A stretch of 64,000 nt of DNA, taken from NCBI GenBank assembly GCA_009926935.1, contig RFNZ01000002.1, positions 89,473 to 153,472 of the forward strand, written 5' to 3'. Origin of the DNA: Pseudomonadota bacterium (GTDB lineage Bacteria; Pseudomonadota; Alphaproteobacteria; Micavibrionales; UBA1664). Numbering within the stretch: position 1 is the first letter of the stretch; every line of letters starts with the position of its first letter. Position numbers and translations under genes: made by a program. Below are positions 1 through 43,046 of the stretch, piece by piece. Below the pieces are notes generated by a model, which was not told where the DNA came from, searched no databases, and saw only the letters and a program-made list of their open reading frames with translations.

Positions 1-349
1 TCGCATCGACCGGGCATGCTTCCTGGCACAGGCCGCAGTAAATGCACTTCGTCATATCAATATCGTAGCGCGTCGTGCGGCGCTGTCCGTCCTCGCGCGG
101 CTCGGCTTCAATGGTAATGGCCTGCGCAGGGCAAACGGCCTCGCACAGCTTGCAGGCAATGCAGCGTTCCTCGCCATTGGCGTAGCGGCGCAAAGCATGC
201 TCCCCCCTGAAGCGCGTTGAAAGCGGCGCTTTTTCAAACGGGTAGTTCAAAGTCACACGCTGCTTGAACATATACGAGAACGTCAGCGCCATCCCGCGCA
301 CGATTTCCGTCAGGAAGAATGATTTGAAGTTGTTCTGCAAAAATTTCAT
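1..349 (-). CDS. nuoI: NADH-quinone oxidoreductase subunit I, N-terminal part; the gene runs off the left edge of the window
   Basis: My own minus-strand translation from the ATG at 347-349 reads [76 protein letters not shown]...[15 protein letters not shown]. It has two 4Fe-4S ferredoxin CxxCxxCxxxCP motifs. It starts 6 nt after the nuoH stop. It is missing from the ORF track because the frame is open at the window edge. Confidence 0.9.
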
Positions 350-355
350 ATCGGC

Positions 356-1378
356 CTACTGTACCACAGGCAGGGAGTTTGTCGCCATCAGTGTTCCGGC
401 CATAACCAGAACCCAGATAAGGGTGAACGGCAGAAATATCTTCCAGCCAAGGCGCATCAACTGGTCATATCGGTAACGCGGTAGCGTGGCCCTGACCCAG
501 ATATAGACAAACAAAATGAAAGAAACCTTGAGCACAAACCAGATAACACCGGGCACAAAGTCCAAAGCCTCGATGCCAAAAGGTGGTAGCCACCCACCCA
601 AAAACAGGATGGTGGCCATGGCCGACATCAAAATCATATTCGCGTATTCAGCCAAGAAGAAGAGCATGAACGCCGCCGCCGAATACTCGACCAAAAACCC
701 GCCTGAAAGCTCGGACTCGCCCTCAGGCAAGTCAAACGGTGCGCGGTTGCACTCAGCCAGAATGGAGACAACAAACACGACAAACATGGGCAAGAGCATG
801 ACCTGCACCCACCATGGGCGCGGCGCAGTCACGATTTCCGTAAGGTTAAGGGACCCAACACAAAGCAGCACGCACACAATCACAAGCCCCATCGAGACTT
901 CATACGAAACCATCTGTGCAGCCGAGCGCATCCCGCCCAAAAACGCGTATTTGGAGTTGGACGCCCAACCGGCCATCAAGACGCCGTAAACCCCCATCGA
1001 TGAAATCGCAAATAGGTACAAAATCCCGACGTTGATATCCGCAATCACCCAGCCCTCATTTACGGGGATGACCGACCACGCAATCATCGAAAGCAGCATC
1101 GTCAAAACCGGTGCCAGAATAAACACCACGCGGTGCGCGGCACTTGGTATGATGATCTCCTTCGAGAAAAGCTTGATGGCATCGGCAAATGTCTGGAGCA
1201 AGCCAAACGCGCCAACTGTCATAGGCCCTTGCCGTAGCTGCATCGCGCCCATCACTTTACGCTCGGCATACACAAGGTAGGCGACACCAATTAGCAATGG
1301 CACCACAAACGCCAGAATTTGCAGCACAATCAGCGCGCCCGGCAAACCATAATCATTGAGAAAAATCTGAAGAGTCAT
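356..1378 (-). CDS. nuoH: NADH-quinone oxidoreductase subunit H
   Basis: 340-aa polytopic membrane ORF. It carries the NuoH/ND1 signatures [16 protein letters not shown] and [18 protein letters not shown]-like ([19 protein letters not shown]). It lies directly upstream of nuoI. Confidence 0.95.
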
Positions 1379-1399
1379 GACAGTAGAGCGTTTTACACG

Positions 1400-2641
1400 T
1401 TATTTTTTGGCTTGAACAGCCTCCAAAAACTGGCGCGCAAGCACGGGGTACGCGTGGTTGATAAGCACATGGGCCTTGGCCCCGGCCCCCGCGGCATCAC
1501 GCTCGGCCGCGCTCATGGCCAATAGTTTTTCAATTGCCGCCGCCACATCCTTAGGGTTGCCGGTGGGTACGGATATGCCGCCCTCCGCTTCTTCCACCAT
1601 GTCGTTACCGGCACCGACAGCCATAATGATAGGCCGCGCGGCCATCATGTAATCGTAAATTTTGTTAAACGATACGCCGTGCTTATACACATCGTAGTGC
1701 TTGGCGCCCATATACAGCACATCCATCTGTTTTAAAAACCGCGGTACATGGCGCTTGGGTACGGGCCCGCACAACACAAAGGTGTCAGCGACACCAATCT
1801 CCTCGGCAAAGTCGGCCAAAGGCGCACGGTATGGCCCGTCACCAATCGTCATAAAGGCCACGGGCAAATCGCGCACATAACCGGCCGCTTCCACCATCAC
1901 TTCAAGCGCATTGGTATCGCCATGCGTACCGGCATAGCCCACAATCATGCGGCCCTGCGCTTTAAAGCGGTCAATCACGGCTTGCACAAGCGTATCAACA
2001 TGCCCCTCGCCCTCATCCGCCCACTCATCAGGGTCTATGCCGTTCGGCACGTGATGAAATTTGCCGGCCTGAAGCCCATAACCCTGCAAAAAACTCTCGG
2101 CCTTCGGCAAAACCGAAACCACAACATCGGCCACTTTACAAGCCTGCCGCTGCCCCCAACGCACAAGATGCATAAAGGGGTGTTCGGCACTCATGCCCCA
2201 AATCTGTACTGGGCTATCGGGCCAAAGCTCTGTCACTTCATATACAAGCTTCGCCTTATGATACCCCGCAATCATCTGCGCCGGCCCCATATCAAAAGGG
2301 TAACCTGACGACGCAATAACAATATCCGGTTTAAAACCGGCGCATACATGGCGCACACGCACATAAAGCTGCGCCACAAAGGCAAGGATATTCAAAATAC
2401 GGCCCCAGCCATTGCCTTTGAAAGCTGGCGTTTTAAAAAAGATGTATTCGATACCGTCAAACCCTTGGCGGTCGATAATCCCCCGCATGCGCGGCTGGCG
2501 TATGCGCGTATGGGCGTGAGATGCCGATATAATCCGCACACGGTGCCCCGCCCGCACCCACTGCCGTGCCAGGTAATACGGGCGGTACTCCATCCCCAGC
2601 ACGGGTGATCCTGCATTGTGGTCGATGTAAAGGATATTCAT
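1400..2641 (-). CDS. GT-B fold glycosyltransferase, family 4-like (WcaI/WbuB-like)
   Basis: ORF 1400-2656; the likely start is MNILYIDH at 2641. It has the N-terminal GT4 pattern ILYIDHNAGSP..YRPYYLARQW and a C-terminal EX7E-like MVEEAEGGISVP. Its stop is 21 nt before the nuoH ATG on the same strand. Confidence 0.7.
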   Translation of the reverse strand: MNILYIDHNAGSPVLGMEYRPYYLARQWVRAGHRVRIISASHAHTRIRQPRMRGIIDRQGFDGIEYIFFKTPAFKGNGWGRILNILAFVAQLYVRVRHVCAGFKPDIVIASSGYPFDMGPAQMIAGYHKAKLVYEVTELWPDSPVQIWGMSAEHPFMHLVRWGQRQACKVADVVVSVLPKAESFLQGYGLQAGKFHHVPNGIDPDEWADEGEGHVDTLVQAVIDRFKAQGRMIVGYAGTHGDTNALEVMVEAAGYVRDLPVAFMTIGDGPYRAPLADFAEEIGVADTFVLCGPVPKRHVPRFLKQMDVLYMGAKHYDVYKHGVSFNKIYDYMMAARPIIMAVGAGNDMVEEAEGGISVPTGNPKDVAAAIEKLLAMSAAERDAAGAGAKAHVLINHAYPVLARQFLEAVQAKK

Positions 2642-2757
2642 ACCCAAATCATACACGGATAGCCTTCAAGGCAAAATAGATACAAAAGCGCCCCTTGATT
2701 TCCTCTTGCAGGCAATACAACTCTCTCCCATCAACAATCTTTTAAAAAGGACATTCC

Positions 2758-3498
2758 ATGAAATCCCTCCAAGGTAAAACAGCCATCGTAACCGGCGGCA
2801 GCCGCGGTATTGGCGCTTCCATCGCCCAAAAACTCGCAGCCGATGGCGCAAACATCGCCCTCACCTACGGTAAATCCGGGGCCGAGGCCGATAAACTCGT
2901 AGCCAGCCTGACCGCTCTCGGCATCAAGGCGAAGGCCTATCAGGTAAACGCAGCCGACAAAGCGGCTATGGCAGCCCTGCCCGCGACCGTCCTCAAGGAT
3001 TTCGGCGGCATCGATATCATCGTCAACAACGCGGGCGTTTTCAGCATGGGCGCAATTGGCGACGTCAACGCCGATGAATATACAAGGGTCATGGGCACGA
3101 ATGTGGATGGCCCCTTTGCCCTCATCAACGCCGCAACCCCGCACCTTAAATCCGGCGCGCGCATCATCAACATTTCAAGCGGGCTAGGTGAACGTGCGGG
3201 CATGCCCGGTGTCAGCCTTTATACGGCATCAAAATTTGCGGTAACGGGTTTAACCAGAGCTTGGGCCAAGGATTTTGGTCCAAAAGGCATCTTGGTCAAC
3301 GCCATCTTGCCCGGCCCCATCGATACCGACATGAACCCAGAAACAAGCACTTTTGCCGATTTCCAACGCTCGCTCACGGCCCTCGGCCGCTACGGAAAGC
3401 CCGATGAAATTGGCAACGTCGCAGCCTTCTTGGCAGGCCCAGGCGCCAGCTACGTCACAGGCGCTCTCATCGCTGTTGACGGCGGCTGGAACGCTTAA
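2758..3498 (+). CDS. Short-chain dehydrogenase/reductase (FabG-like SDR)
   Basis: TGGSRGIG cofactor motif, NNAG motif and catalytic YTASK (YxxxK); 246 aa. It is divergent from the GT4 gene and convergent with nuoG, with 9 nt between the two stops. Confidence 0.85.
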   Translation: MKSLQGKTAIVTGGSRGIGASIAQKLAADGANIALTYGKSGAEADKLVASLTALGIKAKAYQVNAADKAAMAALPATVLKDFGGIDIIVNNAGVFSMGAIGDVNADEYTRVMGTNVDGPFALINAATPHLKSGARIINISSGLGERAGMPGVSLYTASKFAVTGLTRAWAKDFGPKGILVNAILPGPIDTDMNPETSTFADFQRSLTALGRYGKPDEIGNVAAFLAGPGASYVTGALIAVDGGWNA

Positions 3499-3507
3499 GC
3501 GGTTTTA

Positions 3508-5499
3508 TTACTCAGCCGCCATTGCCAGAGGCTTCACAAAAGCCTCTGTGCACTGCGCCATCGTGACAGATGCGCGGGAAATCACGCAAGTTTGGTAGTA
3601 ATTGGCAACGGCCGTACCAAACGGCTTGGCGTCCAGCGTGCCCGCCTTACCAAAATCGCTCCAGGCAACAGGCGTAATGGCGTCAACAGCACCAAAGGCC
3701 GGTACGTCTTTTGCCATCGCGGCGCGTAAATCAGCAAGGGTATTGAAGCTCAAAGGCTTGCCAATCACTTCCGAGAAAGCACGGATGATTTTCCAGTCTT
3801 CCTTAGCTTGCCCAACAGGGCTTGTTGCTTGGCGTGTTTGCTGTACGCGGCCTTCGGTGTTTACATACGTCGCGTTCTTTTCGGTGTAGGTCGCGGCAGG
3901 GAATATCACATCCGCGCGTGCAGCACCTGCATCCCCGTGGTGCCCTTGGTAAATCACAAATGCATCAGCGGGGATGGATTTCACAACATCCGTATCCACA
4001 TTGTTGAGCCACACGGCCTTAATGCCTTGCCACGAAAACTGGCCTTGCGGCGGTGTAAAACCAAGCATCAAAGCGCCCATGCGCCCTGCTGCGGTGTGAA
4101 GGTAGTTGAAACCATTCCACCCCTCGTTCACAACGGCCTTCGCGCGCACAGCCGCCAAAACGGCAGAGGCATCGGCCCGCTGCAACGCAGCCGTACCCAA
4201 AATCATCGCAGGGCGCTCGGCCTTGATGCTCAATTTCTCAAGCGCATCCACCCCCGCACCCAAATACGTATACGGATAGTTCAAATCAATTTTCTGGCCA
4301 ATCACGTAAACCGGCACGCGCTTGTTGTACCAAACCTTACGGATACGCGCATTGATCAGCGGCGCTTCCGTACGTGGGTTACAACCAACCAATACAACCG
4401 CATCCGCCTGTTCAAGCCCTGCAATCGTCGTGTTAAACCGCCATGATGCAGGCGCGGATACATCTATCGCAGCCCCGTCCACACGGCATTCCAGCATATT
4501 GCTGCCAAGCCCGTTCATGAATTTTTTAAGGGCGTAAACGCTTTCAGCGCAGGCAAGGTCACCTGCAAGCGCCGCCATTTGCGCACCCTGTAGGCCCTTT
4601 AGTTTATCGGCAGCAAAGGCAAACGCATCTTCCCAGCTGGCTTCAACCAGCTTGCCGTCGCGGCGCACATAAGGGCGATCAAGGCGCTGCCGCTTGAGGC
4701 CATCCATCGCAAGGCGCGATTTATCGGCAAGCCATGTCTCGTTAATCGCCTCGTTAAGCCGCGGCAAAATCCGCATCACCTCGTTGCCGCGCACATCAAC
4801 CCTGATGTTGCAGCCAACGGCGTCCATCACATCGACGCTTTCAACCTTGCGCAACTCCCATGGCCGCGCCGTAAATTCATAAGGCGCACTCGTGAGAGCC
4901 CCCACAGGGCATACATCAACAAGATTGCCCGACATCTCGGACGCCATCGTTTTTTCGATATACGTGCCAATCTCGACATCCTCGCCACGGTTGAGCAACC
5001 CAAGGTCATCAACCCCCGCAATTTCGGATGCAAAACGCACACAGCGCGTGCACTGGATGCACCGTGTCATGACCGTTTTAACAACGGGGCCGAGTTCTTT
5101 GTCTTTAACCGCGCGCTTGGCTTCAAAATAACGCGACCGGTCATAGCCGTACGCAACCGCTTGGTCCTGCAAATCGCACTCGCCGCCCTGGTCACAAATG
5201 GGGCAATCCAGCGGGTGGTTGATCAGCAAAAATTCCATGACGCCTTTACGGGCCTTATGCACAAGCTCGGAATCCGTCAAGACTTCCATGCCGTCAGCGG
5301 CCGCAAGGCAGCACGATGCTTGCGGCTTTGGCGGCCCAGGCTTTACCTCAACCAAGCACATGCGGCAGTTGCCAGGTACCGATAATTTATCGTGATAGCA
5401 AAAGCGGGGGATTTCGATCCCCATTTGCTCAGCCGCCTGCAACAGGTTGGTGCCCGGGGCGACTTCAATTTCGACATTATTGATTTTCAATTTTGGCAT
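3508..5499 (-). CDS. nuoG: NADH-quinone oxidoreductase subunit G (75 kDa Fe-S subunit)
   Basis: N-terminal 2Fe-2S/4Fe-4S cysteine clusters (CYHDKLSVPGNCRMCLVEV, HPLDCPICDQGGECDLQD, CIQCTRCVRF) followed by a molybdopterin-like domain. The ORF track starts at a GTG at 5511. I prefer the ATG at 5497-5499 (MPKLKINN) because the same GGTGAAAACA(A)TG junction precedes nuoD. Confidence 0.93.
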   Translation of the reverse strand: MPKLKINNVEIEVAPGTNLLQAAEQMGIEIPRFCYHDKLSVPGNCRMCLVEVKPGPPKPQASCCLAAADGMEVLTDSELVHKARKGVMEFLLINHPLDCPICDQGGECDLQDQAVAYGYDRSRYFEAKRAVKDKELGPVVKTVMTRCIQCTRCVRFASEIAGVDDLGLLNRGEDVEIGTYIEKTMASEMSGNLVDVCPVGALTSAPYEFTARPWELRKVESVDVMDAVGCNIRVDVRGNEVMRILPRLNEAINETWLADKSRLAMDGLKRQRLDRPYVRRDGKLVEASWEDAFAFAADKLKGLQGAQMAALAGDLACAESVYALKKFMNGLGSNMLECRVDGAAIDVSAPASWRFNTTIAGLEQADAVVLVGCNPRTEAPLINARIRKVWYNKRVPVYVIGQKIDLNYPYTYLGAGVDALEKLSIKAERPAMILGTAALQRADASAVLAAVRAKAVVNEGWNGFNYLHTAAGRMGALMLGFTPPQGQFSWQGIKAVWLNNVDTDVVKSIPADAFVIYQGHHGDAGAARADVIFPAATYTEKNATYVNTEGRVQQTRQATSPVGQAKEDWKIIRAFSEVIGKPLSFNTLADLRAAMAKDVPAFGAVDAITPVAWSDFGKAGTLDAKPFGTAVANYYQTCVISRASVTMAQCTEAFVKPLAMAAE

Positions 5500-5505
5500 T
5501 GTTTT

Positions 5506-5774
5506 CACCACTAAGACGCTAAGAGCGCTAAGAATTTATTTCAGTTTCTCTTCTTTCAAAATCTCATCAAGCAATTTTCCGCCCCTAGCAAAATTAAATT
5601 ATGGTCAGGAATATCATGAAAAAATATTTCAACTTGCTCTGGCTTGCGCCCAACCTCTTCTACAAAAACATCTGTAATTCTTTTCACAAGGCGGCGCTTA
5701 TCATCAATCGTCAAATCATCGCGGTGATTGATATGTATGACTGGCATTCTTAGCGTCCTTAGCGTCTTAGCGGT
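5506..5774. repeat. Palindromic CTAAG-repeat element, copy 1 (about 269 bp), in the nuoF-nuoG spacer; carries a small ORF
   Basis: The left arm caccactaagacgctaagagcgctaagaa (5506-5534) and the right arm ttcttagcgtccttagcgtcttagcggt (5747-5774) are inverted copies with 2-3 mismatches. The arms are the same as in the 10806-10920 element. Confidence 0.85.
5556..5747 (-). CDS. 4-oxalocrotonate tautomerase-like small protein (63 aa)
   Basis: This is the C-terminal part of track ORF 5556-6149, starting at the ATG at 5745-5747: MPVIHINHRDDLTIDDKRRLVKRITDVFVEEVGRKPEQVEIFFHDIPDHN.... It has an N-terminal Met-Pro and a beta-alpha-beta pattern typical of the tautomerase superfamily. It lies entirely between the element arms. 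No obvious SD is present. Confidence 0.5.
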   Translation of the reverse strand: MPVIHINHRDDLTIDDKRRLVKRITDVFVEEVGRKPEQVEIFFHDIPDHNLILLGAENCLMRF

Positions 5775-5781
5775 TAAAAAA

Positions 5782-7065
5782 TCAAGCCGCCTTGGCTTGC
5801 TTGCGGTAGTCCATGATGCGCTGCTCGACAACGGGGCGGAAGTGCCTGAAGAGCCCCTGTATCGGCCACGCCGAGGCATCGCCATGCGCGCAGATCGTCT
5901 GCCCCTCAATCTGCTTCGAGATATCAAGCAGCATATCGATTTCTTCAATCGTGGCATTGCCCGTGACCATACGCTGCATGATCTTGTACATCCACGCGGT
6001 ACCCTCGCGGCACGGCGTGCACTGCCCGCAGCTTTCATGCATGTAAAAATAGGATAGCCGCGCAATCGCGTACACGACATCCGTCGATTTATCCATGACA
6101 ATAAGCCCAGCCGTCCCAAGGCCCGATTGCACGGCGCGCAGGCTATCAAAATCCATCACAACCGTATCGCAAATCTCGCGTGGTAACAGCGGTGTCGATG
6201 ACCCACCAGGGATCACGCATAAAAGGTTATCCCACCCGCCGCGCACACCGCCCGCATGCTTCTCGATAAGTTCCCGCATGGGGATGCCCATCGCCTCTTC
6301 CACATTGCACGGCGCATTCACATGGCCGGAGATGCAGTAAAGTTTGGTACCCGTATTCTTGGCATCACGCCCAATACCCGCAAACCACTCCCCACCACGG
6401 CGCAGAATGGTTGGCACTGTCGCAATCGTCTCAACGTTGTTCACGGTCGTAGGGCAGCTATAAAGCCCCGCCATGGCCGGAAACGGCGGCTTGTTACGCG
6501 GCTGGCCTTTTTTACCTTCTAGCGATTCCAGTAACGCCGATTCCTCGCCGCAAATATACGCGCCGCCACCGCGGTGCAACTCCACATCAAAATCCCAACC
6601 GGACCCCGCCGCATTTTTACCAAGCAAACCCGCCGCCCGCGCTTCATGAATGGCTTTCCAGACATTCGAGCTTTCGTCAAAAAACTCGCCGCGAATGTAA
6701 ATATAAGCCTTATGCGCGCCAATCGCATGCGCCGCAATCAAAGCGCCTTCAAGCAACTTGTGCGGCTCATGGCGTAAAATCTCGCGGTCTTTGCAGGTGC
6801 CAGGCTCGCTTTCATCGGCATTGATAACCAGATAATGCGGCTTGTCTGATGGCTTCGGCATGAACGACCATTTCATACCGGTCGGGAACCCCGCGCCCCC
6901 GCGCCCACGCAGGCCTGATTTTTTCATCTCCTCGATAATCCAATCACGGCCCTTGGCAATGATGGCGGCTGTGTTATCCCAATCCCCGCGCTTTTTAGCA
7001 TCGGCAAGTGTGAACGAATTCCAGCCATAGAGGTTTGTAAATATGCGATCCTTGTCAGCGAGCAT
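5782..7065 (-). CDS. nuoF: NADH-quinone oxidoreductase subunit F (51 kDa, FMN/NADH-binding)
   Basis: [13 protein letters not shown] (FMN/NADH site), [12 protein letters not shown] 4Fe-4S motif, 427 aa. Confidence 0.96.
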
Positions 7066-7157
7066 AAGGGGTACCGGAAGATTGTTTTTTCACGACAATG
7101 TTATATAGGGCTTCGCGCAGGCTGTCGAGGCGGTTTCAGGGCTTTTCCAGCCGCTCT

Positions 7158-7559
7158 TTAGTCCAAAAACCTGTCTTTAAGGCTTGGTTCAGGCAGGGGG
7201 CACTGGTCCAGTTTTCCAAACCATGCATACCGCCGCTTGCCTATGAAATCATACGCGCAATCCCTAAGCGCCCTTGGAAGCATCCTCAAACCGTAAAAGA
7301 GTGCCCAGGGTAACCCTAAAAACCGCAGCGTTATTAGCACGGCATCGCTCTTGGCGTACACGCGCCCGCCGTGAATAAGGTAAACGGAATCACCTGCCTT
7401 GCCGCCGTACTCCTCAAGCAGGGCAACCCCTTTCGCTGACTGCTGTGAAACAAATTTAAACTTGGCCAGTTTGTCACGCCTCAGCACAAACCGTACGGAC
7501 GCATGACAAAGGTTACACACCCCGTCAAACAGCAAAATGGGCCCATTTTTGCTCACCAT
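7158..7559 (-). CDS. DCC-family (DUF393) thiol-disulfide oxidoreductase
   Basis: Likely start MVSKNGPILLFDGVCNLCHASVRFVLRRD at 7559. The FDGxCxLC redox motif is present. Its ATG is 1 nt after the HTTM stop (7553-7555). Confidence 0.75.
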   Translation of the reverse strand: MVSKNGPILLFDGVCNLCHASVRFVLRRDKLAKFKFVSQQSAKGVALLEEYGGKAGDSVYLIHGGRVYAKSDAVLITLRFLGLPWALFYGLRMLPRALRDCAYDFIGKRRYAWFGKLDQCPLPEPSLKDRFLD

Positions 7560-8908
7560 GTGCGGGCCTTCCAGTGCACAAAAGGTTCCTTGAGCGGTAA
7601 TAACCAAGTCTCAGGGGCAATCCCCCATGTTTCTTTTGTAAGGTCGGTGTCTGGGTCAACCAACAAGGCAGGCTTCCGTCCATTAAGGCTTACATGCACC
7701 TCACACTTGACCTCGGCATCCCGAACGCCCTTTTCGCGGCGCCATTTGTCATCGATATAATACGCAAACTGTAAAAGCGACTTCGCCTCAAGCGATACGG
7801 CCGCATACTGCCGCTGCGTCAGAAAGTCTTTAGGGTCAATCACCCACTCCTGTTTTGTATCGGGGTCGCGCACAAGGCAGCGTGAGCCATAAAATCTATG
7901 GTTATCCAACATCATGCGCCATGCAAAACCTTGGCCCTCGCCCGTCCAGCTTGTGTCTCCGGGGTAATAAAAGCCGCGCAGCGGCACTAGCGCTTGCACG
8001 GCAAGCCACACAGTCATCATGAGGATCACGAGTGTGCCCGGCACCTCCTGCTCGGCAACAGGCACCGGCGATACAGGCTTAAACCGCCCTAAAACCTTGA
8101 GCGGCCAGTCAGGGTCAAAAAACAGTGTCGTTGCCAAAATCGTAAGATACGGGAAGAAGTCGATGTAAAACGTATACGAGTTCAAAAGATGAAAGAGGCA
8201 GTAAACGCAAAACACCCAAACCCGCGTCCGTTTGAAAAACAGAAGCGGCGCACCAACCAGATGGAGGGCAATCGTGCCATAAGCACCAAGCGCCACAAAC
8301 CAGTCCTCAAAAACAAGGCGCCCAAAGATATGGTCGGGCAGCGATCTCAACATGCTGCCCAAAGGCTCGAGCATCAGCCAATCCGGCTTCAGCTTCATCA
8401 ACCCGGCATACAGCAGAACAATTTCTATCTGCATCCGGAAGGTCCAAAGACTCCACCCCGGCACGAGCGGCGTCCAGTTTTTCCGCCGCGCATCAAGCGA
8501 CCACGCGCGATGCATCGGCAAAAAAATCATCAAAATGGCAAAGAGAATAATCAGGTAATAGTGGTTGAGGTAAAACGCAGCTTCCGCCAGAAACGAATAC
8601 GCAAACAAAATAGTGAACACCGTAATCGCCACGCGGTAATAAAGCCCGAGCGCGATAAAAATTCCTGAAATTCCGGCAATCACAATGTGGGCCTTGAGCA
8701 TCCAAAGCGCGGGCCACGTCGGCACCCATTCAAAGTACGTGTACTTCAGATGAAATTCAGGCGTGATGAAATTTTCCAATTGAAACTGGTCATCGATCGA
8801 AAAATCGAGGATGCCGCCGATAACCACCATCACGCCAAAGACGATCCGGAAAAACGCCAGCGAGTAGCCACTGACAGGGGTTGCGAGTACTTCCTTAAGG
8901 GAACGCAA
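7553..8908 (-). CDS. HTTM-domain membrane protein (vitamin K-dependent gamma-carboxylase-like)
   Basis: 451 aa. The N-terminus reads SLAFFRIVFGVMVV, followed by multiple TM helices. The C-terminal soluble part reads WTGEGQGFAWRMMLDNH, as in HTTM/VKGC homologs. It starts 17 nt after the nuoE stop on the same strand. Confidence 0.75.
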   Translation of the reverse strand: MRSLKEVLATPVSGYSLAFFRIVFGVMVVIGGILDFSIDDQFQLENFITPEFHLKYTYFEWVPTWPALWMLKAHIVIAGISGIFIALGLYYRVAITVFTILFAYSFLAEAAFYLNHYYLIILFAILMIFLPMHRAWSLDARRKNWTPLVPGWSLWTFRMQIEIVLLYAGLMKLKPDWLMLEPLGSMLRSLPDHIFGRLVFEDWFVALGAYGTIALHLVGAPLLFFKRTRVWVFCVYCLFHLLNSYTFYIDFFPYLTILATTLFFDPDWPLKVLGRFKPVSPVPVAEQEVPGTLVILMMTVWLAVQALVPLRGFYYPGDTSWTGEGQGFAWRMMLDNHRFYGSRCLVRDPDTKQEWVIDPKDFLTQRQYAAVSLEAKSLLQFAYYIDDKWRREKGVRDAEVKCEVHVSLNGRKPALLVDPDTDLTKETWGIAPETWLLPLKEPFVHWKARTW

Positions 8909-8925
8909 AAAGCCTCCTGCGAAAG

Positions 8926-9546
8926 TTAGGCAACTCCTGCCTTTTTGGCTTCATCTTGAAGTGTTGTAGGGCCGGTGATGGCCATGGAGCATTTACGCCC
9001 GTTCTGCGGGCCCGCAGGCACTTCACGGCCTGCCGATAAAGCATCGATGATTTCTTTCATGCGCTCTGGCGTCAGGTCTTCGTAATAGCTGTCGTTAATT
9101 TGTACCATCGGGGCATTCACGCACGCGCCAAGGCACTCAACTTCAGTCAAAGTAAACTTCCCGTCGGACGTCGTTTCCCCGATATGGATTCCAAGTTTTT
9201 CCTCGCAAGCTTTCACAATATCGGCCGAGCCGCGCAGCCAGCACGGCGTTGTCGTGCAGCACTGTATGTGGTTTTTGCCAATCGGGCGCAGGATAAACAT
9301 CGAGTAAAAAGTAGCCACTTCAAACACCTTGATGCGCGGCATTTCAAGAATCTTTGCAATCTCTTCCATCGCAACTTCAGGTATCCACTGCCCTTCGGTC
9401 TCGCGCATTACCAAATCCAAAAGCGGCATAACCGCCGATTGTTTGCGTTCTTCCGGGTAACGCGAAAGAATATCCGCGACCTTCGTCATATCTTTGAAGG
9501 CGAAGCTGGTCGGCTGTTGTTCCTTGGGGGCGACAATAGGCTTCAT
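8926..9546 (-). CDS. nuoE: NADH-quinone oxidoreductase subunit E (24 kDa, 2Fe-2S)
   Basis: Thioredoxin-like 2Fe-2S pattern [10 protein letters not shown]...CLGACVNAP. It overlaps the nuoD stop by 4 nt. Confidence 0.95.
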
Positions 9547-10799
9547 CGGTCAATTTCTCCAAAAACGATATCCATCGATCCAATGATCGAAACGGCGTCA
9601 GCCAACATGTGCCCGCGGGACATAAAGTCGAGGCCAGCCAAATGCGCAAAACCCGGCGCCCTTATGTGGCACTTATACGGGCGGTTTGTGTCGTCCGATA
9701 ACAAATACACACCAAACTCGCCCTTGGGGGCTTCCACGGCCGTATAGGTTTCACCGGCAGGTACGTGATACCCTTCGGTAAACAATTTGAAGTGGTGGAT
9801 CAGCGCTTCCATCGAGCGTTTCATTTCCTCGCGCGGCGGCGGCACAATCTTGTAATCATCCACTTTAACGGCCCCACCCGGCATTTCCTTGAGGCACTGG
9901 CGCATGATTTTGAGCGACTGGCGCATTTCTTCCATCCGCACCACATAGCGCGCATAACAATCGCCTGTCTTGCCAACGGGTATATCAAAATCCATTTTCT
10001 CGTAAACTTCATAAGGCTGCGATTTACGCAAATCCCACGCAACGCCGGATGCCCTGAGCATAGGGCCAGTAAAGCCCCAGTCAAAGGCTTGCTGCTTGCT
10101 GACAACGCCAATCCCAACCGTGCGCTGCTTGAACACGCGGTTTTCAGACAGCAAGCCTTCAAGGTCATCGATAACCTTGCCGAAATTTTCAGTCCAGTCC
10201 CACATGTCTTCGGCGAGACCCTTGGGCATATCCATCGCAACACCGCCGGGGCGTATGTAATTGGCATGCAGGCGCGCGCCGCAAACACGGTCGTAGAATT
10301 CCATGCCCTTCTCGCGTTCTTCAAAACCCCAAAGCGCAGGCGTAATTGCACCAACATCCAGCGCATAGGTCGTAATATTAAGGATGTGGTTTAAAATGCG
10401 TGTCAGTTCCAAAAACAGCACGCGCACATACTGCGCGCGCGGGGGCGGCGTAATGCCCAACAGCTTTTCAACAGCCAAGGCAAAACAATGCTCTTGGTTC
10501 ATGGGTGAAACATAATCAAGCCGGTCGAAATACGGCAGCGCCTGTAAATAGGTTTTGTGCTCAATCAGCTTTTCGGTGCCGCGGTGTAATAGCCCGATAT
10601 GCGGGTCAGCGCGCTCCACCACCTCGCCGTTCATCTCCAAAATCAGGCGCAAAACGCCGTGCGCCGCTGGGTGCTGCGGGCCAAAGTTGATTGTATACGG
10701 CTTGATTTTCTCGTCATCGCTCGTGGCAACAATCTGCCCCGTTGAATCATCAAGCGTGACCAGCTGTTTCGTAATTGTATGCGTTGCATTTGAACTCAT
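9543..10799 (-). CDS. nuoD: NADH-quinone oxidoreductase subunit D (49 kDa)
   Basis: [27 protein letters not shown], and a C-terminal DIVFGEIDR. Confidence 0.96.
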
Positions 10800-10805
10800 G
10801 TTTTC

Positions 10806-10920
10806 ACCGCTAAGACGCTAAGTACGCTAAGAAAATTTTATACCATTCATTATTAATCCACCTCGAAAATCTAACTAGCTAAAAACAAATTCTTCTTAGC
10901 GTACTTAGCGTCTTAGCGGT
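10806..10920. repeat. Palindromic CTAAG-repeat element, copy 2 (115 bp, no long ORF), in the nuoC-nuoD spacer
   Basis: accgctaagacgctaagtacgctaagaa at the left end and its exact reverse complement ttcttagcgtacttagcgtcttagcggt at the right end form a perfect 28-bp terminal inverted repeat. The arms are built from CTAAGnCG units. Confidence 0.9.
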
Positions 10921-10928
10921 AAAAAAAA

Positions 10929-11612
10929 CTAACCCCCTCCACCACGCACACGCTCGGCGGCATTGGTGCGGTAATCAACGGTGCCCACCTTCTGCTTTAC
11001 GGCTTTTTCGTCGCCCGGTAATTGCACGGTTGTCATGGCTTCCCACGGGCTGAGGTTATCGAAGGATCTAAAATCCTGCATCAGCTTCACGGGTTCATAG
11101 ACCACGCGGGCTTGCGCCTCGTCGTAGCGCAGCTCGACAAATCCAGTCAGCGGAAAATCTTTGCGCAGCGGATGCCCTTCAAAACCATAATCGGTCAGAA
11201 TGCGGCGGAGGTCTTCATTGCCCTCAAAAGCAATGCCGTACATATCCCACACTTCACGCTCAAGCCAGCCAGCGCTTGAGTAAACAGGCGTAACAGACGG
11301 CACGGGCGTATCTTCATCCGTCATAATTTTAACGCGGATGCGCAAATTGTGCCGCAGCGAAAGCAGCTGGTACACAACCTCAAACCGGTCGGCTTTGGTT
11401 GGCCAATCAACGGCTGTAATATCCATCAGCTGCACGCAAGCCGTTTCAACATGGTCGCGCAAATCGGTCAGCACGCGCACAATTTCGGCACGTTTAGCAT
11501 GCACCACCAGTTCATCCTGCGCGAAAGACGTGCCCGAAACGCCATAGGCAAATGCTTCGGCAATTTTGGCGGCCAGTGCCGCTTTTTTTTCGGACGGGGC
11601 TTTGCGGCTCAT
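10929..11612 (-). CDS. nuoC: NADH-quinone oxidoreductase subunit C (30 kDa)
   Basis: [40 protein letters not shown] signature. ATGA overlap with the nuoB stop. Confidence 0.95.
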
Positions 11613-12184
11613 CGCACAATCCTCGTATCTTCACGCTGGATTTTTTTCTGGAGCTGCAAAATACCATACACAAGCGCCTCAGCCGTGGGCGGGCAACCCG
11701 GCACGTAAATATCGACCGGCACAATACGGTCGCATCCGCGCACAACCGAATAGGAATAGTGGTAGTATCCCCCGCCATTGGCGCAGCTGCCCATGCTAAT
11801 CACCCAGCGCGGCTCTGGCATCTGGTCATACACACGGCGCAAGGCCGGCGCCATTTTGTTGGTGAGCGTGCCAGCGACTATCATCACATCGGATTGACGG
11901 GGTGAAGGGCGTGGAATAACGCCAAAACGGTCAAGGTCATAGCGCGACATATAGGAATGAATCATCTCAACCGCGCAGCATGCAAGGCCAAATGTCATCG
12001 GCCACATCGAGCCCGTGCGCGCCCAGTCAAACAGCTTGTCGACTTGCGTTAGCACAAAACCCTTGTCAGTCACTTCCTGCGCGATGCGGGCAACAAACTC
12101 ATCCTGCTTCACGGCAGGAACAGGGATGTTTGGTTGCTTTAAAGGAGCGGCAGGCGCCGCAATGATATTCTTTTCATGAGACAT
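11609..12184 (-). CDS. nuoB: NADH-quinone oxidoreductase subunit B (20 kDa, N2 cluster)
   Basis: [19 protein letters not shown] and VPGCPP cysteine motifs. Confidence 0.96.
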
Positions 12185-12187
12185 GGA

Positions 12188-12589
12188 TTATTCCCAATCA
12201 AGGGCGCCTTTCTTCCATTCATAGATAAAACCGATGGTGAGGATACCAAGGAAAACGACCATCGACCAGAAGCCGAATAAACCTATATCCGAAAGGGTAA
12301 TTGCCCAGGGGAACAGGAACGCGATTTCAAGGTCGAAGATAATGAAAAGAATGGAAACCAGATAAAACCGGACATCGAATTTGTGGCGCGCATCCTCAAA
12401 AGCATCAAAGCCGCACTCATAAGGGGCGAGCTTGTTGGCGTCAGGCCGCTGCTTGCCCGAAAAATACGACCCCACAAGCATCACAAGCGCAAGGCCCGCG
12501 GCAATCCCGATAAAAATCAGGATAGGCAGGTATTCGGCCAGAAAGTGGTTGGAGGCAAGAAACGTATCGAGTGTATTGGAGCCAGTCAC
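12188..12589 (-). CDS. nuoA: NADH-quinone oxidoreductase subunit A
   Basis: 133-aa protein with 3 TM helices, carrying PYECGF and [11 protein letters not shown] motifs. It is the first gene of the nuo cluster. Confidence 0.93.
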
Positions 12590-42050: not shown

Positions 42051-43046
42051 ATGCCAAAAACATACGAACTAACAGGTCTCGGCAATGCCATCGTTGACGT
42101 CATCGCCAACGGAACGGACGATTTTCTGGCCAAACACGGCATCATCAAAGGCGCCATGAACCTGGTCGACGCCGAGCGATCCAAGTATCTCTACGATGCC
42201 ATTGGCACCGCAAGGCAGGTATCAGGCGGCTCCGCGGCCAATACCATGGCGGGTTTTGCCTCTCTTGGCGGCAAGGGCGCGTATTTGGGCAAAGTGGCCG
42301 ATGATCAGCTGGGTGAGTTTTTCGCCCACGACATGCGTGCAGGCGGCATCCATTTTGACTGCACACCACTCAAAAACGGCCCCGCCACCGCCCGCTGCAT
42401 GATTATCGTAACCCCTGATGCGCAGCGCTCCATGAACACATACCTGGGCGCCTGCGTCGAATTCTCGGAAGAAGACGTAGATGAATCTCTGATAGCTGAT
42501 TCAAAAATCATCTACCTTGAAGGCTATCTCTTCGATAAACCGACCGCAAAAATGGCCTACCTCAAAGCCACCAAAAAGGCCCGTGCGGCTGGCACAAAAG
42601 TTTCGCTTACGCTTTCTGATAGCTTTTGTGTTGAGCGCCACCGTGCCGATTTCCAAAAACTGATCGCCGATGAAACCGATATATTATTCGCAAACGAAGC
42701 CGAAATTTTGGCGATGTACCAAACAACATCCTTTGAAGATGCAGTAAAAGCCGTGCGCGGCAAATGCGATGTTGTGGCCATCACCCGCAGCGAAAAAGGC
42801 TCGGTCATCGTAACGGCGACTGAAACAATCGAGGTACCGGTCCAGCCCGTTGCCCACGTGGCCGATACAACGGGCGCGGGCGACCAATACGCGGCAGGCT
42901 TTCTGTTCGGTTACGCCCGTAACATGCCGCTTGCTACCTGCGGCGCTTTAGGTTCACTCGCCGCCGCCGAAGTTATTTCTCATGTGGGCCCCCGCCCCGA
43001 AACCTCGCTGGCACAACTCGCCCAACAACAAAAACTCGCCGCATGA
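42051..43046 (+). CDS. PfkB-family kinase (adenosine kinase-like)
   Basis: GGSAANT and DTTGAGDQYAAGFLFG PfkB signatures. 331 aa. The length and pattern are as in alphaproteobacterial adenosine-kinase-like proteins. Confidence 0.75.
   Translation: MPKTYELTGLGNAIVDVIANGTDDFLAKHGIIKGAMNLVDAERSKYLYDAIGTARQVSGGSAANTMAGFASLGGKGAYLGKVADDQLGEFFAHDMRAGGIHFDCTPLKNGPATARCMIIVTPDAQRSMNTYLGACVEFSEEDVDESLIADSKIIYLEGYLFDKPTAKMAYLKATKKARAAGTKVSLTLSDSFCVERHRADFQKLIADETDILFANEAEILAMYQTTSFEDAVKAVRGKCDVVAITRSEKGSVIVTATETIEVPVQPVAHVADTTGAGDQYAAGFLFGYARNMPLATCGALGSLAAAEVISHVGPRPETSLAQLAQQQKLAA

Follow-up and report, generated by a model that had tools for sequence, protein, structure and literature searches.

Two elements with inverted arms lie in the nuo operon of the window, that is, the whole 64-kb stretch of DNA from a Micavibrio-like bacterium that we analyzed. 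Both are read on the minus strand; one separates nuoC from nuoD and the other separates nuoF from nuoG. The short hairpin element at nuoC-nuoD (10801-10928, 128 bp) is composed, in the mRNA sense, of a T-run, ACC, three GCTAAG units, an AT-rich interior of 47-59 nt, three CTTAGC units and GGTGAAAA. Its 5′ arm (10887-10925) comes directly after the nuoC stop codon and its 3′ arm (10801-10839) contains the SD-like sequence GGTGA; the two arms are 39 nt long, 92% complementary and spaced by 47 nt. The long cassette at nuoF-nuoG (5502-5781, 280 bp) consists of a 5′ arm (5746-5779), a tautomerase-family ORF and a 3′ arm (5502-5535), which also contains GGTGA. In this copy, the arms are 34 nt long, 88% complementary and spaced by 210 nt. 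All four arms possess three CGCTAAG units. The earlier note on this DNA had described two elements with terminal inverted repeats built from CTAAG units, and we located the arms where it placed them, although they are slightly longer. A 28-nt core, ACCGCTAAGACGCTAAGTACGCTAAGAA, is perfectly matched (28/28) in the short copy, as the earlier note had it; in the same 28 nt of the long copy, for which two or three mismatches had been given, we counted three. The 269-bp long copy, however, had been taken for one palindromic element, and it is actually two arms placed around a tautomerase gene.

The arm sequences are concentrated at these sites. In the window, CTAAGNNCGCTAAG matches four times against 0.19 matches expected, with all four matches inside the arms, and GCTAAGNCGCTAAG matches four times against 0.05 expected. 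No site for the CGCTAAG arm motif was found in the 64-kb window beyond the four arms. Between the two nuo copies, the arms are approximately 90-96% alike, and the flanking genes are unrelated. The GC content is 0.33 for the short element and 0.38 for the long element, as compared with 0.53 for the window. With the third element described below, the values span 0.33-0.40, and the composition of the three elements is foreign, being AT-rich relative to the window. When the mRNA-sense strand was folded, the predicted energies were −64.6 kcal/mol (z = −9.7) for the short copy and −93.2 kcal/mol (z = −5.1) for the long copy. Thus, the proposal that the element forms a long stem in the mRNA agrees with the prediction, in which both copies are very stable. 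We also considered whether the short copy is a deletion derivative of the long one and rejected this idea: the interiors score 17 as compared with a shuffle mean of 16.9. A BLAST search of the short element against plasmids gave no match. With Rfam, only tRNAs were detected in the whole window at the gathering threshold, only sub-threshold miRNA-precursor hairpins were found in positions 5400-11100 at E values up to 10, and nothing relevant was found in sixteen related loci.

The two junctions have the same order (stop codon, T-run, element and start codon), as had been claimed. The nuoC stop codon TAG (10929-10931, minus strand) stands at the element boundary and is directly followed by T8-ACC. 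Similarly, the nuoF stop codon TGA (5782-5784) leads directly into a T-run (TGA-TTTTTT-AACC), and the predicted stem of the long copy begins 2 nt past this stop codon. At their other ends, both elements terminate with GGTGAAAACA(A)TG, which runs into the nuoD ATG (10797-10799) and the nuoG ATG (5497-5499). The GGTGA sequence (TCACC on the plus strand) is located 4 nt upstream of the nuoD ATG (10804-10808) and 5 nt upstream of the nuoG ATG (5505-5509), and it is the only SD-like sequence upstream of these start codons. The suggestion that the element supplies the translation-initiation region of both genes therefore holds: it adjoins both start codons and carries their sole SD-like sequence. 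In both elements, the stem has a T-run before it and an A-run after it, read on either strand. The U-run 3′ of the stem, by which an intrinsic terminator is recognized, was found on neither strand.

The ORF in the long cassette (5556-5747, minus strand) encodes 63 amino acids. It matches the Pfam Tautomerase family (PF01361) with an E value of 9e-10 and 38.7 bits, above the cut-off of 22, and starts with MP, so that the N-terminal proline (Pro1) after the methionine is present. The ORF can therefore be assigned to the 4-oxalocrotonate tautomerase family. The sequence AAGGA, assigned to the 5′ arm, is 8 nt before its ATG. The C-terminus is frameshifted as compared with homologues: a 5-nt tandem duplication (AATTT-AATTT; 5587-5603, minus strand) puts the last 12 residues out of frame. 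When one AATTT copy is removed, a 68-residue ORF with the family C-terminus (NFARGGKLLDEILKEEKLK) is obtained, with a TAA codon 3 nt before the 3′ arm. Because it is frameshifted, this passenger gene is decaying. The tautomerase cassette is patchily distributed: both the window and a distant relative (L124; NuoF 74% identical) have it, whereas five closer relatives (83-96%) lack it. A metagenome scan with the tautomerase alignment yielded two more homologues (L127 and L128), which are in other gene contexts and do not possess the arms. Therefore, the tautomerase can occur away from the arms, and the linkage between the two is not obligate. In L124, the homologous cassette is also at nuoF|nuoG and every unit is of the CACAGAG type. 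In other words, GCTAAG is replaced by ACAGAG throughout, with matching changes in the opposite arm, and the stem, the 8+9 spacing and the AACC/GGTT base are retained. Purifying selection for a functional structure is also compatible with this architecture and its compensating unit changes.

An element built in the same way but with CACAGAG/CACAGCG units is located at 43047-43172 on the plus strand, with a hairpin at 43047-43130, arms at 43055-43083 and 43098-43126, and an AT-rich tail. It starts just past the pfkB stop codon (ATGA at 43043-43046) and lies in frame within the 5′ end of a solute-binding-protein (SBP) gene, in which the ancestral signal peptide is replaced. In L164 and L165, the SBP gene overlaps pfkB by ATGA. 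The element substitutes approximately 51 nt of the ancestral sequence, and the insertion is not clean. This third hairpin had been missed by the earlier note.

The nuo junctions were compared with those of relatives in which NuoF is 88-96% identical. In five of them (L122, L123, L129, L131 and L132), nuoC and nuoD overlap by 4 nt (ATGA) without an element; the C-terminus of NuoC in the window is unlike that of these relatives, where the TGA overlaps the nuoD ATG. Six relatives (from L121-L123 and L129-L132) have no arms at nuoF|nuoG, where other ORFs or a 31-nt spacer are found instead. Therefore, the nuo elements are lineage-specific AT-rich insertions (33-38% GC vs 53%). These five nuoC/nuoD and six nuoF|nuoG junctions also bear out the view that the elements are a repeated palindrome family and not an ordinary leader. 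In total, the window contains two CGCTAAG copies and one CACAGAG copy, and all are absent from the orthologous sites of relatives. Each copy starts just past the stop codon of the upstream gene, at a junction that is an ATGA overlap in relatives, and this arrangement (three of three copies) fits the proposed MITE-like element with a site preference. As in MITEs, the elements are small, have terminal inverted repeats, and have an interior that is non-coding or contains the tautomerase ORF. No direct repeat that might represent a target-site duplication flanks any of the three window copies, and the window and L121-L132 yielded neither a transposase gene nor a GxxExxY gene. From the pattern of presence and absence, we infer that the elements are, or were, mobile.

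A metagenome assembler can in principle create a palindrome by fold-back or chimera formation. The source of the window is a metagenome-assembled scaffold, and an independent Logan assembly (L126) breaks in an arm of the short copy. Nevertheless, L126 covers positions 1-10830 of the window without a mismatch and spans the whole long copy, and both the long cassette and the junction between the 3′ arm and nuoD are identical in it. In addition, both nuo elements are internal to a 795-kb scaffold and have intact genes on either side, and this architecture is seen again in many unrelated assemblies, among them those of isolates. An assembly artefact is therefore extremely unlikely.

The same type of element is found in other phyla. 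A scan of a genome collection with the permissive pattern CTAAGN{1,2}CGCTAAGN{1,2}CGCTAAG gave at least 120 loci, among which the genome of the window itself is not included. Elements from Bacteroidota, Chloroflexota, Ignavibacteriota and Verrucomicrobiota share the termini of the window elements, namely a T-run, CAC(C), three GCTAAGNC units, three units in the opposite arm, (G)GTG and an A-run. Among the matches listed, approximately 109 of the 120 motif loci are intergenic with diverse housekeeping neighbors, at least hundreds of unrelated intergenic sites bear this element type, several copies occur per genome, and tandem arrays are present. The members occur as singlets, inverted doublets and clusters, which are mostly intergenic and just past stop codons. 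Viral contigs gave 17 matches to the arm pattern, most of which are coding repeats of the AKA type, and one phage protein bears the arm sequences in frame. No description of the element was found in the literature when the unit sequence and the family names were used as queries. Resemblances of the units to the 23S rRNA 5′ end, to boxA or the met-box, to sites for CsrA or Hfq, and to d(GCGAAGC) mini-hairpins were considered and set aside as lacking support or a test.

In the family, the units are conserved and the spacers between the units vary; in many members, the spacers are non-complementary between the two arms. Together with the 8-9-bp periodicity, which is like that of met-box arrays, this feature would be expected if the tandem 8-bp units were DNA operators bound by a repressor of the MetJ or omega ribbon-helix-helix style that controls nuo transcription. 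However, the sites lie between cistrons within an operon instead of at a promoter, the same units stand beside unrelated genes in many phyla, and no candidate regulator is adjacent. Thus, we consider operator arrays to be very improbable.

Small genes are enclosed by some elements of the family. Of 94 small ORFs neighboring the elements, most are diverse housekeeping genes and only GxxExxY (two ORFs) and PF05635 (one ORF) stood out. GxxExxY genes encode proteins of the PD-(D/E)XK nuclease fold, and the PDDEXK_3 entry is annotated as "function unknown". Among the 120 motif-selected matches listed, all five GxxExxY genes lie between arms; this link rests partly on loci that were picked because they carry the arm motif. 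For example, in L059 (Prevotellaceae) the arms around a GxxExxY ORF read TTTTTCAC-GCTAAGGC-GCTAAGGC-GCAAAG ... CTTAGC-GC-CTTAGC-GC-CTTAGC-GTGAGAAAAA. When GxxExxY genes were picked by protein similarity alone, inverted repeats of tandem units were found to flank five of six distinct closer homologues, and the PF05635 genes in L109 are likewise flanked. Elements with other unit sequences enclose genes of the GxxExxY family or of the 23S-rRNA-intervening-sequence-protein family. Because elements with the same termini enclose GxxExxY genes elsewhere, the window copies can be regarded as probable relatives of this cassette class that have no ORF or carry the tautomerase gene.

We propose that the two nuo elements and the element at 43 kb are probably inserted copies, non-autonomous or with a passenger gene, of a hairpin element that is or once was mobile. 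One arm of such an element is built of a T-run, (C)ACC and three tandem 8-9-nt units (CGCTAAG in the nuo copies), and the opposite arm is its inverted copy. The interior is either a short AT-rich sequence or a small passenger gene, which occupies the whole loop between its start codon and its stop codon.

Alternatively, the stem, whatever its origin, may now be a domesticated intercistronic RNA element that is selected for the regulation of Complex I expression. It could mask the ribosome-binding sites of nuoD and nuoG for translational coupling, be processed by RNase III, or act as a barrier to 3′-exonucleases and thereby give segmental mRNA stability to nuoA-C, nuoD-F and nuoG-N. In its favor, the SD and the region adjacent to the AUG are part of the base of a stem that is very stable. 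Furthermore, the mismatches in the window stems favor G-U pairs on the sense strand, and the sense folds of all three window elements are better than the antisense folds by 1.3-5.9 kcal/mol. Over 35 hairpins from other genomes, however, G-U and A-C mismatches number 32 vs 20, and no clear strand bias is seen. The stem of L124, which is kept at the same junction despite the change of all units, and the loop of the short copy, which contains a strong SD (GAGGTGGA) and a seven-codon mini-ORF that stops in the 3′ arm, are also consistent with a domesticated RNA. Against it, five relatives use a simple ATGA overlap without the element, and elements of this type occupy hundreds of unrelated intergenic sites with varied neighbors in other phyla (among the matches listed). 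Moreover, the third copy is within the coding region of a signal peptide, and the passenger gene is frameshifted. On balance, domestication seems rather unlikely.

Such insertions in an essential and tightly coupled operon would need to be tolerated. We propose that they are tolerated because the ends of the element place a stop codon by the upstream gene and an SD by the downstream start codon. Four features may contribute to their survival. First, the order of T-run, stem and A-run is the reverse of that of an intrinsic terminator on either strand, and transcription would therefore read through. Second, the arms hold stop codons, and each element starts at the stop codon of the upstream gene. 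Third, the outer end of the 3′ arm, GGTGA-AAAC(A)-ATG, would give the downstream gene an SD. Fourth, the stem would set the upstream stop codon beside the downstream start codon and mask the SD. Ribosomes that finish nuoC or nuoF would melt the stem at its base, so that the nuoD or nuoG site becomes exposed, and this melting would restore the translational coupling that was once given by the ancestral ATGA overlap. By analogy with rRNA intervening sequences, a stem that is perfect over at least 28 bp could plausibly serve as an RNase III substrate as well.

More tentatively, all of these parts may belong together in a cross-phylum superfamily of tandem-unit hairpin cassettes, for which the window would give the first example from an mRNA operon; this wider proposal is possible but rather doubtful. 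In the superfamily, an arm would be approximately three copies of a lineage-specific unit of 7-12 nt, and autonomous forms would enclose a GxxExxY PD-(D/E)XK nuclease or a PF05635 four-helix-bundle protein. The enclosed protein would recognize the units or their cruciform and drive homing or transposition, a role that for GxxExxY is purely conjectural. A specificity code, co-evolving with the protein, would then reside in the unit sequence and would account for the concerted GCTAAG-to-ACAGAG swap of the orthologous cassettes. The superfamily would include rRNA intervening sequences as a special case, and the stop codons, the non-terminating polarity, the outward SD and the stop-to-start stem would be an adaptation that makes insertion into an operon phenotypically silent. 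If the class is real and mobile, it would open a way into a decades-old problem, the nature and the movement of rRNA intervening sequences, and would suggest a testable role for the large orphan families GxxExxY/PDDEXK_3 and PF05635. A selfish insertion that splits coupled, essential respiratory genes and rebuilds the stop codon, the SD and possibly the coupling from its own ends would bear on how operons evolve and on how insulated intercistronic junctions may be designed. For annotation, such hairpins break assemblies, yield false long ORFs and conceal small genes.

Several known systems can be compared with these elements. Similar to MITEs, Correia elements of Neisseria and Rickettsia palindromic elements (RPEs), the window elements are small, have no transposase, possess terminal inverted repeats, occur in several copies (three in the window) and can be co-transcribed with their neighbors. 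The third copy, in frame in a coding region, is especially like RPEs. However, there is no sequence similarity. The resemblance to RPEs mentioned in the earlier note is only an analogy; the window elements also differ in the absence of a target-site duplication, in their internally repetitive arms and in the distribution of the family over several phyla. We know of no IS with ends that match the elements.

The comparison with REPs, BIMEs and REPINs is based on location and arrangement. These sequences are extragenic and sit immediately 3′ of stop codons; they are found singly, in clusters, and as inverted doublets forming long hairpins, and an inverted pair of them can flank the associated gene. 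REPs stabilize upstream mRNA. If the window elements were inverted REP doublets mobilized by a RAYT (an IS200/IS605-like Y1 transposase), the singlets, doublets and intergenic clusters right after stop codons would be explained, as would the inverted pairs around genes, since REPs can flank RAYT genes. In contrast to a REP, which is a short palindrome with a conserved GTAG head, a single arm of the window elements is three direct repeats, is not self-palindromic and has no head of the GTAG type. Furthermore, the genes enclosed by the arms are GxxExxY, PF05635 and tautomerase genes, and no Y1 transposase was present in the loci examined. Therefore, the REP membership suggested by the earlier resemblance fails, and we regard mobilization by a RAYT as highly unlikely.

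With regard to function, long-range masking of a ribosome-binding site that is opened by upstream translation is known for the MS2 coat-replicase junction, and intercistronic hairpins set segmental mRNA stability in the Rhodobacter puf operon and at the malE-malF REP. The nuo stems are similar in that sequence after a stop codon is paired with the SD of the next cistron, here in an alphaproteobacterial polycistronic mRNA. These cases are functional analogies only, for putative translational coupling, processing or stabilization at the nuo stems.

The intervening sequences (IVSs) of bacterial 23S and 16S rRNA genes differ from the window elements in three respects. IVSs are set in rRNA helices 9, 25 and 45, whereas the window elements lie between or inside protein-coding genes, and Rfam detected no rRNA in the window. 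No description of arms made of three tandem 8-9-nt units was found for IVSs. The cargo of the window elements is a tautomerase gene or nothing. IVSs are regarded as parasitic elements, the mobility of which is unknown, and their stem in rRNA is cut by RNase III (PMC4990558). Like the Coxiella burnetii and Leptospira helix-45 IVS, however, the window elements are sporadic AT-rich insertions in an essential and highly transcribed unit. In both cases, complementary ends form a long stem, and the loop is short or is filled by one small ORF. Together with the tandem-unit inverted repeats around genes of the IVS-protein family (PF05635) in L109, these analogies suggest that the cassette class resembles rRNA intervening sequences.

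All genes at the nuoF/nuoG and nuoC/nuoD junctions lie on the minus strand. A repeat search of the window recovered an inverted repeat at each junction: 34 nt, 88% complementary and 210 nt apart in the long copy before nuoG (5502-5535 / 5746-5779), and 39 nt, 92% complementary and 47 nt apart in the short copy before nuoD (10801-10839 / 10887-10925). The motifs CTAAGNNCGCTAAG and GCTAAGNCGCTAAG each match the window four times (0.19 and 0.05 expected, respectively), the former always in the four nuo arms and the latter never outside them. These results confirm the paired elements described in the earlier note, including the perfect 28-nt arm core of the short copy; the core of the long copy has three mismatches, where two or three had been noted. 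The two junctions are also alike, as claimed. The nuoC stop codon TAG (10929-10931, minus strand) is followed directly by T8-ACC and the arm, and the nuoF stop codon TGA (5782-5784, minus strand) directly by a T-run, the predicted stem beginning 2 nt past the stop. At the 3′ end, both elements read GGTGAAAACA(A)TG, leading into the ATG of nuoD (10797-10799) and nuoG (5497-5499).

The elements are not confined to these two junctions. A third, similarly built hairpin (43047-43130, plus strand; unit pattern 4 matches versus 0.05 expected), missing from the two-element family of the earlier note, has CACAGAG/CACAGCG units and lies directly after the pfkB stop codon, in the 5′ end of a solute-binding-protein (SBP) gene. 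Its 5′ side reads ATGA-T7-AAAA-CACAGAG-CA-CACAGAG-AT-CACAGCG and, after a 14-nt loop, its 3′ side reads CGCTGTG-CG-CGCTGTG-GT-CGCTGTG. In two relatives (L164, 90% identity; L165, 81%), pfkB and the SBP gene overlap by ATGA, and the SBP opens with an ordinary signal peptide, MMLRIAALALLLLATPALA. The hairpin and an AT-rich tract (43043-43172, plus strand) lie in frame with the SBP gene of the window and encode ...AVRAVVAVFNILFIFIYIFSAHA in place of the ancestral signal peptide, part of it from the 3′ arm. Translation may truly begin at either the ATG at 43043 or a GTG within the arm.

NuoF places the host among Micavibrio-like Alphaproteobacteria. The window sequence itself is reproduced by ENA ERZ28575969 scaffold_2 (a 795-kb scaffold), with no difference across the 15,747 nt compared, and by an independent Logan assembly without mismatch to window 1-10830. 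Position 1 of the Logan assembly (window 10830) falls inside the short-copy arm. Because this assembly of the same population ends there, palindromes of this kind seem to break short-read assemblies. In five relatives (L122, L123, L129, L131 and L132; NuoF 88-91% identical), nuoC and nuoD overlap by ATGA without a spacer. At nuoF/nuoG, no arms were found in these five or in L121 (NuoF 96% identical), and the content varies: an 82-aa membrane ORF in L121, ORFs of 218 and 143 aa in L122, a 91-aa ORF in L123, a 132-aa ORF in L129, and a 31-nt spacer in L131 and L132. The armless orthologous spacers support the earlier view that the elements are not an ordinary leader; the finding is real and more than a simple leader. 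All three elements start directly after the upstream stop codon, and their GC contents (short, 0.33; long, 0.38; third, 0.40) are below that of the window (0.53). At nuoC/nuoD and pfkB/SBP, relatives have a 4-nt stop/start overlap where the window has an element. Because the elements are AT-rich and the junctions of relatives are element-free, the three are lineage-specific insertions. The nuo junctions probably act as insertion hot spots, since their accessory content differs among relatives. Variable accessory genes interrupt the operon of this clade (window 3508-12589 and L121-L132): HTTM/VKGC-like and DCC1-like genes separate nuoE from nuoF, and UbiA, acyltransferase, SBP_bac_3, glycosyltransferase, DnaJ, PagL and orphan ORFs are found at other positions.

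The arms of the long copy had been correctly described, but its interior is an ORF, and the element is a gene cassette. The 63-aa ORF (MPVIHINHRDD...; 5556-5747, minus strand) matches Pfam Tautomerase PF01361 (38.7 bits versus a cut-off of 22). Its ATG abuts the 5′ arm, which provides AAGGA 8 nt upstream. Relative to homologues, the reading frame is shifted over the final 12 residues; a 5-nt tandem duplication, AATTT-AATTT (5587-5603, minus strand), frameshifts the ORF. When one copy was removed, a 68-aa tautomerase with the family C-terminus ...NFARGGKLLDEILKEEKLK was restored, and its TAA lies 3 nt from the 3′ arm. Originally the cargo occupied the loop exactly; the present copy is damaged.

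A homologous cassette is present on a 1-kb JGI contig (L124) carrying nuoF, a tautomerase gene (product 67% identical to that of the window by BLASTP) and nuoG. Its 5′ flank is ...GAACC-ACAGAGGC-ACAGAGTAC-ACACGGAG...ATG, its 3′ flank is TAA-ACTCTGTGCCTTCTCTGCGAC-CTCTGTGT-CTCTGTGG-TTTTTTT, and the arms pair into a stem that encloses the ORF. Alignment with the window showed that the AACC/GGTT base, the 8+9-nt spacing and the GT spacer are retained, and that each GCTAAG is changed to ACAGAG with the complementary change in the partner arm. The CACAGAG unit is common to this cassette and the third element. NuoF of L124 is just 74% identical to that of the window, and five relatives at 83-96% are without the cassette. 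Because the distant contig has the cassette and the closer relatives do not, its distribution is patchy, through loss on several occasions or else through separate arrivals at this one junction. At another tautomerase homologue, in a fabD-fabG context (L127), two GC-rich, REP-like palindromes in inverted orientation (TTCCCCCGCGAAAGCGGGGGA; 1486-1580) lie 3′ of the gene; these are unrelated to the CTAAG family.

As expected in the earlier note, the nuo spacers are predicted to form long stems. Coding-strand RNA folds gave -64.6 kcal/mol (z = -9.7) for the short copy and -93.2 kcal/mol (z = -5.1) for the long copy, the arms forming the closing stem of both with GGUGA inside it; the predicted stems of the window elements are very stable. 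This GGTGA, from the outer 3′ end of the elements, sits 4-5 nt upstream of the ATG; about one third of genes in the window have an SD of the AGGA/GGAG type. We rejected a terminator, because the order of T-run, stem and A-run is the inverse of a terminator on either strand. All three reading frames are closed within the element. At the 8+8 spacing commonest in our genome-collection scan (L001-L120), three CGCTAAG units close every frame with TAA, and the complementary arm does so with TAG. The window arms have 8+9 spacing, yet every frame is still closed within each element. Inverse-terminator polarity on both strands and closed frames would allow insertion to be tolerated, and the outer 3′ end would supply the downstream gene with GGTGA before its ATG. 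The stem would join the upstream stop to the downstream start and hide the SD, and a ribosome that terminates there could melt it, re-creating the coupling formerly provided by ATGA. We infer that this design explains tolerance in a coupled operon. The short-copy loop (10841-10865, minus strand) contains a strong SD-like GAGGTGGA, 6 nt before a 7-codon mini-ORF (MNGIKFS) that takes its TAG stop from the first CTTAGCG unit in the 3′ arm; its translation would melt part of the stem masking the nuoD SD. Sense folds were better than antisense folds in all three elements (-58.6 versus -52.7, -46.8 versus -44.0 and -33.6 versus -32.3 kcal/mol), and this hints at selection at the RNA level.

The genome-collection scan gave at least 120 stretches, a partial, non-random sample chosen by arm motif; about 17 matches are expected by chance in the whole collection, as estimated from base composition alone. 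The matches listed come from Prevotellaceae and other Bacteroidales, Flavobacteriia, Saprospirales, Anaerolineae and other Chloroflexota, Gemmatimonadota, Ignavibacteria, Verrucomicrobiota, Cloacimonadota and Cyanobacteria. Among them, 11-13 (two counts) are coding 9-nt repeats and the remainder are intergenic; 35 partner arms, spread over 34 loci, lie no more than 160 nt from the seed arm; several of the genomes supply two or more loci each, and some loci contain clusters or tandem arrays. Many listed loci share an AT-rich run, (A)ACC or CAC, three units and a short loop, with three CTTNGCG units and then GGT(T) or GTG on the distal side. Mismatches between their arms fall mostly at variable N positions and in spacers. 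Listed elements adjoin 122 gene ends versus 69 gene starts, typically within about 30 nt, and their neighbours are ordinary, diverse genes. In five loci (L025, L027, L085, L088 and L106), ATG lies 4-8 nt past the stem base, as in the window. On a viral contig (L155, 3787-4425), two near-identical copies of the window arm (TTTCACCGCTAAGACGCTAAGATCGCTAAGA) lie within a phage ORF and encode a repeated ...ENLS(V/D)LS(A/V)LAVKPS... module.

Two unusual families alone stood out as recurrent among the 94 small ORFs flanking the listed loci: GxxExxY (TIGR04256/PF13366; two) and the 23S-rRNA-IVS protein family PF05635 (one). An HMM made with the GxxExxY sequences found five genes in all loci collected (L002, L047, L059, L069 and L091), every one between arms of this type. 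For example, L059 has TTTTTCAC-GCTAAGGC-GCTAAGGC-GCAAAG 24 nt before the GxxExxY ATG and, after TAA and 6 nt, CTTAGC-GC-CTTAGC-GC-CTTAGC-GTGAGAAAAA; its termini are those of the window elements. In L047 (6440-7443), the gene lies between tandem arrays of complete hairpins with a 79-nt period (CTCGCTAAGGCGCTAAGACGCCAAGG, loop, CTTTGCGACTTCGCGGCTTTGCGAG), a layout resembling a BIME cluster. In a set of 14 viral-contig loci picked on protein similarity alone, GxxExxY is flanked by inverted repeats of about three tandem units with other sequences in L133, L134, L135 (L136 identical), L137 and L139; the flanks in L138 are ambiguous, and those of six distant homologues (33% identity) have no tandem-unit inverted repeats. 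In Psychroflexus (L109; 3480-3990 and 6060-6560), each of two PF05635-like genes with the NIAEG motif lies between inverted arms whose tandem units are 12 nt long (TTTAGTTGGTAG and TTGAAACAAGAC types). Neither family is encoded in the window or in L121-L132. Because the units, not the spacers, are conserved and were swapped in concert, we speculate that GxxExxY or PF05635 proteins mobilise the cassettes with the units as their recognition sites.

The window elements are foreign, lineage-specific and repeated, and share their construction with elements found around small orphan genes in many phyla; presumably they are mobile now or were formerly. No Rfam family was matched by them, and no paper describing them was found within our incomplete literature coverage. 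That they mark a distinct, undescribed superfamily of mobile cassettes is a tentative idea that we consider rather unlikely. The REP-like option of the earlier note was rejected, as the defining REP features fail. Its MITE-like option holds for behaviour; unlike MITEs, however, the window elements have no known transposase, and no target-site duplications were found at them. Among known elements, the rRNA intervening sequence (IVS) comes closest, although the window elements lie outside rRNA and we found no description in the literature of tandem-unit arms as an IVS feature. The Coxiella IVS has a 28-bp stem that is cleaved in its middle and an ORF in its loop (PMC4990558). By analogy, a perfect stem of 28-39 bp would be a plausible RNase III substrate. 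We class the window elements with the palindromic insertions, as a variant that is IVS-like or MITE-like.
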